Positions 46,191 to 48,595 of a stretch of DNA of 64,000 nucleotides are shown here, in pieces. Made by a program: the position numbers and the translations under genes. Source of the DNA: Octopus vulgaris (Eukaryota); contig OX597814.1 of NCBI GenBank assembly GCA_951406725.2, positions 28,520,001 to 28,584,000 of the forward strand, written 5' to 3'. The stretch's first letter is position 1; every line of letters starts with the position of its first letter. Below the pieces are notes generated by a model. The model made no database searches. It had not been told where the DNA came from and saw only the letters and a program-made list of their open reading frames with translations.

Positions 46191-47688
46191 TGTGTGTGTG
46201 TGTATGTATGTATGTGTTTAAGCTTGTCGTCTACCTTTTGGATATGTCCCTGCATGCTTTGCTTTTCTTCCTAGTCTGGTTGTTTTAAACAAACGTGGAC
46301 AAGTTTCTGAACTACATTCTACTTTTCCTCTCTCTCTCTTACTCACTCACTCACTCCCTCACTTACTTCCTCATTCTCTCTCTCTCTCTCCGCCCCTCTC
46401 CCTTTCTATCAACCAAGTCTACCTATAAGTCTTACTCTTTCTTCTTCAATCTCTCTTCCAATTCAAATCCTTCTCTATCACTCGCTGCTCCGCTTCTCTC
46501 TTGTCTGTCGGCGTATATATATATATATATATATATTTCTTTCTTAACAATCTTCTCTCTTCCCTTATCACTTCTTCTTCTCTCCGTTTCTCTTTGTTTC
46601 TTCTATCTCTCCTTTGTTTTTCAATCTCTTCATATTCCTCTTCCAATTTCTTTCTTTTAGTATCCATTTCTTAACACATTTTTTTTATCCTTTCTAGAGC
46701 AACCCTGCAATCTCTCTCCCTCTCCCTCTCCCTCTTACCACCCTCATACTCTCTGTCTCATACACTCTCCTTCCCTCAACACTTTTTCCTATCTTCCCTC
46801 TCTTTATCTTCTCTATATTTCTAACCCTCCCCTTGTTCTCTTGAATTCCTTTCCTTACATTCCCTCCGACTCCTTTTGTTTGCTTTATTTCCACCTCTCT
46901 CACACACATTCTTTCTTACTCTCCTTTTCCCATCAGTTTCTATATATTTATACCTCTGTCTGTTGATGCTCCCTTCACATTCTCCCTCTCTTTCTCTCTC
47001 TGTATCTATCGTTCTGTGTGTTTTCGGCATGGTTTCTCTCTATATCTCTCCCCTTCAGGTTCACTCTATATACACATATACACATTTTAAACATACATGT
47101 ACACACAAACGATTCCACGTGCATTTATTATGCCACGCAGGCATACTGTCTATCCTTTTCTCTCTTTAACACACCGTCATTCTATTTTCCTTTACCCCAC
47201 CGTCACCTCCGTTCTACCGCCAACACATACACATACACACACACACACACACATACTCACACACATACTCACTCACATACTGCCCCCTCTCACTCTCTTC
47301 TCTCTTTTCATATCCCTTTTATATATGTATTTATGTATTTATTTTTGATTTGTTTTTTTTGTTGCAGGCTCTTCTCACCCGTTTCCTCTTCCTTAAGGGG
47401 TTATGGAGGGACGGGGCAAAGGGTGCAGACGAAAGAAAGCACATTTAGGGGCGCGGGAAGTCTAGAAAACACCACTAACCCAGACAGAAGAATTAGAGAA
47501 GATGGGGAGGGAGGGATCGGCAGGGTAAATAATTAGCAACGATATATATATACATATATATATATATATATATATATATATGCATATATATATATATGGA
47601 TATATATATACACACATATATATATATATACATATATATATATATATATATATATATCTATACAATATGTTACATTACTCGGTAGTCA

Positions 47689-47751
47689 AGATAAAACTCT
47701 GAGTTTCAGATGCCGAAGTGGAAATCCACAACACCATCTCTTCGGTTATCT
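47689..47751 (-). ncRNA. Type I hammerhead ribozyme motif (left-arm copy)
   Basis: Mirror of 48433-48495. Confidence 0.7.
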
Positions 47752-47935
47752 GGCTATTTGAAAACGTTATGAAAAAATACCGTTAAAAATGAAGGGAAAT
47801 TACTCTGTTATAACTCTGCTTTGCCTGCGTATTTATACATCGCTCGCATTTTTCGTCATAAAAATTATATAAAAATACATAAAAATATATAAAAATATAT
47901 AAAATCTTCTTGGGACATAACACAGAAAGCATGTT

Positions 47936-48091
47936 CTATCCGTTTTCTTTAGGGGACCAAAAACGTAACAGAAATTTAGTCACATGTGGGCATGATCCGA
48001 AAAGCTCTGTCCTTGTATTTAGACATGTGGTAGGGTCTAAGCTGCTTTTCCAGATAAGCCATCTCTCCATGTCGCATAAACCGCACCTTCC
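47936..48091 (-). pseudogene. PLE GIY-YIG endonuclease C-terminus (left arm)
   Basis: GRCGLCDMERWLIWKSSLDPTTCLNTRTELFGSCPHVTKFLLRFWSPKENG*, fitting the CxLCxxE...LNxRxEL...CxHxxKxLL motif. Confidence 0.85.
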
Positions 48092-48094
48092 GTT

Positions 48095-48238
48095 TTATGC
48101 GACATGGAGAGATGGCTTATCTGGAAAAGCAGCTTAGACCCTACCACATGTCTAAATACAAGGACAGAGCTTTTCGGATCATGCCCACATGTGACTAAAT
48201 TTCTGTTACGTTTTTGGTCCCCTAAAGAAAACGGATAG
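48095..48238 (+). pseudogene. PLE GIY-YIG endonuclease C-terminus (right arm)
   Basis: LCDMERWLIW...LNTRTELFGSCPHVTKFLLRFWSPKENG*. Confidence 0.85.
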
Positions 48239-48432
48239 AACATGCTTTCTGTGTTATGTCCCAAGAAGATTTTATATATTTTTATATATTTTTATATATT
48301 TTTATGTATTTTTATATAATTTTTATGACGAAAAATGCGAGCGATGTATAAGTACGCAGGCAAAGCAGAGTTATAACAGAGTAATTTCCCTTCATTTTTA
48401 ACGGTATTTTTTCATAACGTTTTCAAATAGCC

Positions 48433-48495
48433 AGATAACCGAAGAGATGGTGTTGTGGATTTCCACTTCGGCATCTGAAACTCAGAGTTTTATCT
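48433..48495 (+). ncRNA. Type I hammerhead ribozyme motif (right-arm copy)
   Basis: agataa-CCGAAGA-gatg[..gtgg attt ccac..]catc-t-GAAA-ctc a gaG TT-ttatct; stems I, II and III all pair. Confidence 0.72.
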
Positions 48496-48595
48496 TGACT
48501 ACCGAGTAATGTAACATATTGTATAGATAAATTTCCTCTATTTACATAATATTGAGGTCTCTTTCTTTCTTTTGTTATCTTACCGTTTTATCAAT

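Follow-up and report, generated by a model that had tools for sequence, protein, structure and literature searches.

How does a retroelement come to lie at one locus as two copies of its own 3′ end placed back to back, and has the palindrome that they form any function? The question is raised by an inverted repeat at 47652-48594 of the window (the whole 64,000-nucleotide stretch of Octopus vulgaris DNA analysed here), in which an original prediction, made from the sequence, had seen two Penelope-like 3′ ends, each carrying a hammerhead ribozyme, that arrived in a single insertion. The explanation that best covers the whole, and that we consider likely, is that the locus holds a stump of a Hydra-clade Penelope-like element whose head-to-head copies were made in one event, with both nicked target strands acting as primers.

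The inverted repeat is genuine, with 202 exact pairs running outward from inner ends at 48080 and 48094. Its arms occupy 47652-48080 (429 bp) and 48094-48532 (439 bp) and make up, with a 13-nt spacer, 881 bp in all; these bounds replace the 426, 436 and 875 bp first proposed, the outer ends blurring by about 3 nt into (TA)n. As had been read, the arms differ, over an alignment of about 430/440 bp, by one substitution (47832 versus 48352) and one additional 10-bp unit in the right arm, part of an array whose length varies among copies of the family. The spacer had been taken as additional 5′ sequence of the left copy, which holds for 12 of its 13 bases: 48081-48092 belong to the inverted copy and are missing from the right one, but the T that follows fits neither. 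Likewise, the terminal segment thought to be exclusive to the right copy is indeed confined to it, but measures 62 rather than 65 nt; in tandem copies, this tail continues into position 1 of the next unit. The segment encoding the end of the ORF has its mirror at 48092 to 47936 on the minus strand, and both are a non-coding stump at this locus (Table 1). A target-site duplication is unreadable in the (TA)n flank of the focal insertion.

Table 1. Features of the focal insertion and its flanks (window positions; unit positions refer to the 2,588-bp unit L038:3023-5610)
Feature	Positions	Strand	Remarks
Left (TA)n microsatellite target	47542..47651	.	TRF array 47542-47662 plus sequence
Inverted 5′-truncated copy	47652..48092	-	Unit 2076-2526; short, tail-less end
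Hammerhead motif of inverted copy	47689..47751	-	Identical to that of direct copy
10-bp AT-rich unit, left arm	47858-47904		4.6 copies
Single base at head-to-head junction	48093..48093	.	Matches neither arm
Direct 5′-truncated copy	48094..48594	+	Unit 2088-2588; long, tailed end
Last ORF codons and TAG stop	48094..48238	+	Endonuclease-domain end with Hydra-type CxxC..E..N..CxH
10-bp AT-rich unit, right arm	48270..48326	+	5.6 copies
Type I hammerhead motif	48433..48495	+	Predicted cut after 48489
62-nt tail	48533..48594	+	Right copy only
Right (TA)n microsatellite target	48595..48835	.

The 27-mer that spans the junction occurs once in the genome. Independent contigs from 4 of the 24 runs listed hold no bridging piece or joint over 47940-48240 among the 32 matching pieces listed, 230 others falling outside the listing, and at 48092 all four runs give the sequence of the intact element; rare variants get dropped from such contigs, and the runs may come from other individuals. 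A two-template origin of the focal arms was considered and set aside, the shorter array recurring in the family but being prone to slippage and the substitution in the left arm being seen at this locus only. The differences between the arms are best read as a copying error or a later mutation.

Element family and hammerhead motif

Each arm corresponds, as predicted, to the terminal part of a Penelope-like element (PLE) family with a 708-aa ORF, and the peptide on which that reading relied is as described, being the last 49 residues of this ORF and the C-terminus of a GIY-YIG domain. A first look at the 2.8-Gb genome gave 927 candidates for the right copy, and each of the 40 that were scored matches its full 505 bases at an identity that rounds to 100%; identity between the right copy and 29 other loci is 99.8%, and the median divergence within the family is 0.26% (99 arms longer than 300 nt). 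At L038, the locus that supplies the reference unit, two truncated copies, one inverted and one direct, stand beside the full 2,588-bp unit, and an ORF bearing YKDD lies upstream of 3′-end copies of the family.

The 708-aa ORF carries RWK at residue 37, DKT at 114 and a CxCX5C linker at 557, together with IIY..YVG at 576-598, with no cysteine in between, and a CxxC..E..N..CxH block at 660 that is the one found in the focal peptide. Among the 120 homologues listed, RW[KR] occurs in 116, DK[TS] in 119, CxCX5C in 119 and the C-terminal CxxC..CxH block in 115, and each of the listed family motifs, IIY..YVG included, is present in 98-119. RWK, DKT, CxCX5C, the cysteine-free IIY..YVG and the terminal CxxC..CxH block are given as Hydra-clade traits in section 11 of PMC8557442. 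The remaining features agree with that clade: the element is shorter than 3 kb and has a single ORF in which, as the motifs order it, RT precedes a C-terminal endonuclease, and the focal insertion is flanked by (TA)n. Moreover, when tailed ends of 30 loci were taken by a pattern without TA requirement, TA repeats lay beyond 29 of them and the next unit beyond 1. A Pfam scan of the ORF returned no family at E≤1 and a PDB sequence search nothing significant, so that the RT and GIY-YIG calls rest on motifs, published alignments and Atlas neighbours, the latter comprising clusters of 700 aa (0.99) and others with GIY-YIG or RVT_1 (0.96-0.97). On these grounds, and on comparison by eye with published reference proteins, the element is almost certainly a young Hydra-clade Penelope-like family, of which the focal copy is a 5′-truncated insertion.

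None of the clades named in advance, Naiad, Neptune and Nematis, fits these motifs, which point to Hydra instead. Naiad combines an N-terminal GIY-YIG with a CxC domain and no hammerhead, whereas the endonuclease motifs are C-terminal here and a hammerhead motif is present; Neptune and Nematis have a CX2-5CxxC linker and CCHH, whereas the linker here is CxCX5C and CCHH is absent. Non-LTR retrozymes, defined in the available portion of bioRxiv 10.64898/2026.07.22.740005 as non-coding tandem hammerhead units, were likewise rejected, the arms being the 3′ terminus of a 2.6-kb element that has coding capacity.

Hydra-1_Obim of Octopus bimaculoides, as presented in parts of PMC8557442, is alike in its unit of less than 3 kb with one ORF (709 aa, versus 708 here), and shares with its clade and with the present family RWK, DKT, CxCX5C, CxxC and CxH around E and N, and (TA)n targets. 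By eye, 28 of the first 45 residues match, so that the octopus family described here is related to, but distinct from, Hydra-1_Obim; the stems of the hammerhead differ as well. The two also differ in abundance, this family being young with thousands of ends and Hydra-1_Obim being described in the same parts without a pLTR and as 4 co-terminal copies. The open literature searched holds no description of a Hydra-clade family such as this one, which may already be catalogued in Repbase/Dfam or in subscription journals; as far as found, the family thus appears not to have been described before, its layout being already known.

The hammerhead motif has the type I layout foreseen, but its core reads CCGAAGA and not the canonical CUGANGA, a U4C change. 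Stem I (48433-48438/48490-48495), core (48439-48445), stem II, GAAA at 48477 and a palindromic 3-bp stem III can all be placed, giving three stems and both core boxes with one core base altered. Set visually against the Hydra rows in File S2 of PMC8557442, the layout is similar: hammerheads of the clade share the 3′ position and have a palindromic stem III that a single base closes, but every one listed in that part of the supplement has U4 where the present family has C. In the same 22-nt context, U4C occurs in 2,364 copies of the genome versus 34 with U4. Twelve of these 34 were examined and are more diverged (81-98% in the motif-bearing piece); the partner arm retains C in 2 U4 copies, as in CpG decay, and both arms are U4 in 1, which at about 82% identity is possibly older. 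An ancestral subfamily with the canonical core may stand behind the U4 copies. A minor core variant, CCGATGAG, makes up 7 of 271 pattern matches, in loci that overlap and counts that are not independent.

Rfam returned no family for the window at gathering threshold, and no hammerhead among 28 matches at E≤10 for 47600-48650; its best matches were generic microRNA hairpin models, all sub-threshold, and a microRNA family was rejected. The catalytic fold is predicted at −9.3 kcal/mol, 7.8 above the non-catalytic monomer MFE of −17.1. Given the core change, cleavage by the U4C hammerhead is probably weak. A natural U4C variant of a viroid is much less active in vitro and yet sufficient in vivo, according to the part of PMC3088659 available; unlike that variant, U4C is here nearly fixed in a freshly amplified retroelement. 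In the accessible sections of PMC4209133, metazoan PLE hammerheads are weak and dimer-dependent, and the type I motifs among them resemble the one found here in a weak palindromic helix III that needs a dimer and in low activity in vitro. That a successful family has its core almost fixed at U4C supports the view that the spread of PLEs needs no efficient hammerhead cleavage.

Does this hammerhead nevertheless leave a trace? Arms end exactly at the predicted cut (unit 2484) at 7 loci, with 3, 1 and 7 pattern matches for neighbouring positions. Three loop-less palindromes with unrelated flanks are found at 2484, compared with 0 at neighbouring positions and 2 at a control position, 2426; one of the three had prompted the cut-site test. 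The arm ends at 2484 are a weak hint of hammerhead cutting, and stalling at stem I would leave an identical trace. The three palindromes centred on the predicted cut, L193, L195 and L200 (G000 C2:44676854, C3:33467627 and C20:25694349), are independent insertions.

Head-to-head insertions across the genome

Exact patterns adjoining TA detect at least 582 short ends and at least 1,299 tailed ends of the family in the genome, with 0 for the reversed controls. Contig C1, covered to 209.9 Mb, has 43 short ends, of which 30 face a tailed partner head to head within 15 kb and none shows another arrangement; one of these partners lies at 13.8 kb, and nine pairs span only 143-307 bp. Junctions were sampled at the first 100 short ends listed: the focal locus is one of them, and behind each of the other 99 a stretch of 5.7 kb was taken. 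Because this sample was picked by the exact short-end pattern on contigs C1-C3, it under-counts variant ends. Within it, 79 loci are head-to-head, 20 are without an adjacent BLAST partner and 1 is without a match; in at least 2 of the 20 the partner is too short for alignment, and 2 extend past the fetched stretch. The arrangement, for which a genome-wide count had been suggested, is accordingly the usual state of the family.

The family has two fixed 3′ ends, 62 nt apart, and each insertion has one short and one long end: 74 of the 79 head-to-head insertions terminate in the tail, and tailed-tailed pairs number 0 among 100 tailed ends. Another short end also occurs, at about 2523, 3 nt ahead of 2526. 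Among the near-symmetric simple junctions, eight, the focal one included, have an overlap of at least 300 bp, which reaches 2.4 kb. Inverted 5′-truncated copies with a one-ended tail of 30-40 bp, shorter than the 62 nt found here, are described for PLEs in the part of PMC8557442 available, where Penelope-13_HM provides an inverted 5′-truncated copy of the same kind; inverted pLTRs with a one-sided tail are reported for Adineta vaga Penelopes in sections of PMC3846280, and minimal hammerheads on opposite strands, 100-700 bp apart, in those of PMC4209133. The head-to-head layout, including its one-sided tail, is therefore already published, and it is the norm in this family.

At L038:2950-2965 and 3015-3030, the same ATAAAT context follows both fixed 3′ ends in a tandem transcript, where a (TA)n primer would find an AUA to pair with. 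Tandem arrays of at least two full units at L149, L170 and L089 imply multi-unit templates. Complex junctions with additional switched segments occur at L163, L097, L104 and L178; at L163, the end of the left arm and the start of the final right arm both fall on unit position 592.

Leaving aside 6 complex junctions, 73 simple ones bear on how the two copies were made. Outside the slippage-prone array at 2255-2325, which was left out, polymorphic sites gave 55 comparisons, in 51 of which the two arms of a locus agree and in 4 of which they are discordant, whereas 500 shuffled pairings gave a mean of 13% and a maximum of 35%; 13 variants shared by the arms are private to one locus, and arm-private differences number 59. 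Break points are also coupled: 35 of the 73 junctions lie within 45 nt of symmetry where 8.8 are expected, and outside a truncation hot spot the figure is 10 of 42 where 1.8 are expected, values never reached in 20,000 permutations. None of these 42 lies within 3 nt of symmetry and 9 lie within 25 nt. The hot spot itself (unit 2390-2450, or about 48396-48456 at the focal locus) collects 20 left and 21 right ends of the 73 junctions and may be a transcript start or a stall of reverse transcription just past the hammerhead. Several direct segments ahead of full units start at 2434-2500.

Much longer arms are found on either side, the short-end arm being the longer in 17 simple junctions and the tailed arm in 21, with offsets of up to about 2 kb in either direction. 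The spacer is on the tail-less arm in 33 of 73 (16 near and 17 far), as at the focal locus, and five junctions are perfect palindromes without a loop. Microhomology of at least 2 nt marks 29 of 54 insertion-free junctions, compared with about 17% expected, and bases were added at 25 of the 79.

Probable two-strand priming and its rivals

Sharing of variants between the arms, together with the nearby stops, favours priming from both nicks on one template, and we regard two-strand priming at (TA)n as fairly likely to have made the head-to-head copies. The GIY-YIG endonuclease of the element would nick both target strands, and one 3′ end would prime at the short site (unit about 2523-2526), while its counterpart would start at the long site (2588); the template would probably be a single RNA molecule or else RNAs from one source copy. 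Both cDNAs would stop early, and their 3′ ends would be joined via 1-6 nt of microhomology, sometimes aided by a short fold-back and with bases added in the manner of host end joining. At the focal locus, the short-end cDNA would have extended 12 nt further and one base been added; a short fold-back, followed by bridging to the second cDNA, may have occurred.

LINE-1 twin priming offers a precedent in which both target strands prime and junctions show microhomology, but the second primer lands upstream and the outcome is an inversion without duplication. Here, by contrast, both starts would lie within 62 nt of the 3′ end, yielding an inverted duplication.

Closer biochemistry comes from the Poseidon PLE protein of Anolis, PAc, which according to the available part of PMC11167929 cleaves and extends both strands in vitro from two start sites marking the limits of the tail, is predicted to form a dimer and requires no hammerhead cleavage in vitro. 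PAc is alike in having two 3′ ends a tail-length apart and AT-rich targets, as well as a hammerhead near the pLTR-ORF junction that is dispensable for insertion in vitro; its hammerhead overlaps the start codon, whereas the predicted cut here falls about 210 nt before the ATG of the next unit. PAc belongs to another clade, Poseidon, and it counts against two-strand priming in the present family that the both-strand, two-site biochemistry has been borrowed, by analogy, from there.

The alternative offered alongside paired priming was fold-back of the cDNA. A single strand, whether a cDNA or a copy of an antisense template, would prime its own mirror arm, and resolution by the endonuclease would give the asymmetry of the tail. 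The excess of near-symmetric junctions and the loop-sized offsets outside the hot spot speak in its favour, and such offsets, including the 12 nt of the focal locus, suit fold-back better than plain end joining; the sequence at the focal junction allows a 2-bp CG stem to be drawn that closes a 7-nt loop, with one mismatch, and the variants common to both arms, 13 of them private to one locus, would follow as well. Self-priming on an antisense template has been proposed for Adineta Penelopes (PMC3846280, in the sections available), and the Adineta vaga elements resemble the present family in their 5′ head-to-head inverted copy, one-sided tail and microhomology joins, although the counts obtained here favour two primed strands and no TSD can be read in (TA)n. 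Simple fold-back of the spacer-bearing copy leaves the tail unexplained: wherever the spacer is on the tail-less arm, that strand has no such 62 nt to give, and a second, tailed cDNA is needed. The five palindromes without a loop and the offsets to about 2 kb in either direction also tell against it, and we consider fold-back as the sole source of the palindrome unlikely. The shared variants could alternatively reflect arm-to-arm copying, a single active source per cell or gene conversion.

That the insertion was a single event, as originally proposed, is borne out by the lack of (TA)n between the arms, by the short-end/long-end rule kept in 74 of 79 insertions and by the variants common to both arms. 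The same observations make it very improbable that two elements entered the same (TA)n independently, or were brought together by a later rearrangement, and were then homogenized by gene conversion: (TA)n is a hot target, and pieces cluster at L090, L097 and L163, but the sharing of variants is far above chance despite the 59 arm-private differences. An assembly or library artefact is barely credible. Assembly is difficult for palindromes lying between long (TA)n tracts, but a fold-back chimera would mirror the flank and give identical arms, whereas the focal arms differ at two places, have unrelated flanks and terminate at the two distinct ends of the family, a rule that 78 other loci obey.

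With two-strand priming as the preferred reading, a fuller picture can be put forward tentatively, one that we hold to be doubtful in its entirety: the insertions would record two reverse transcriptases that prime, each at its own fixed site, from opposite nicks on one RNA and run towards the same 5′ end (a likely transcript start near 2390-2450 or, now and then, the cut at 2484), followed by head-to-head joining, with the U4C ribozyme still cutting at a low level and leaving loop-less palindromes centred on its cut. How tandem and inverted structures form is, for Craig et al. 2021 (PMC8557442), a mechanistic question still to be answered, and a search of the open literature on Penelope inversion by twin priming turned up nothing that by title and abstract concerns PLE inversion. 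The family is young, its ORF looks intact, its (TA)n target is defined and both of its ends are precise, which makes the two-nick model directly testable in vitro.

Predicted read-through hairpin and the rest of the window

Transcription across the locus had been expected to yield dsRNA with one hammerhead near the base of the stem, a candidate source of endo-siRNAs or an ADAR substrate. The dsRNA part of this expectation holds in prediction, the 944-nt insert folding, from either strand, into a hairpin of 432 pairs at −762.8 kcal/mol; the hammerhead, in contrast, is predicted to be paired rather than free. All 70 positions printed across it are paired in the predicted hairpin, and the antisense arm, transcribed first, is predicted to pair with the whole hammerhead.

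Could the locus serve as a functional hairpin whose dsRNA, diced or edited, silences the family? Besides the predicted fold, small RNAs are reported for rotifer Penelopes, mostly of piRNA size, in sections of PMC3846280. Yet the window yielded neither an identified promoter nor a host gene, no host gene being evident among 99 ORFs of at least 110 aa (short exons would escape this search); the insertion is very young and bears no sign of selection; and its hammerhead is paired inside the hairpin. Arm overlap reaches at least 400 bp at 30 of the 73 sampled simple junctions, so that any effect would be collective and, many loci offering equal or more dsRNA, the focal copy is not a special source. 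Nor does the private-mutation spectrum of the genomic copies show a clear A>G or T>C excess, judged informally, as a footprint of A-to-I editing. We therefore consider a functional hairpin at this locus decidedly improbable; an siRNA or ADAR role may exist for the family taken together, with no support for it at the focal copy. The focal stump has no known function and is ordinary retroelement debris.

Other repeats accompany it in the window. A reading frame at 51094-51444 on the minus strand resembles what we take to be a fragment of a Tc1/mariner transposase, and another at 20738-21241, also on the minus strand, is presumably a fragment of a non-LTR retrotransposon. Abundant, SINE-like dispersed repeats with a period of 171-183 bp have copies at 5404-5874, 23241-23583 and 49400-49760, and at 54303-54400 two arrays with a 14-bp period are apparently reverse complements of each other, forming a possible small palindrome.
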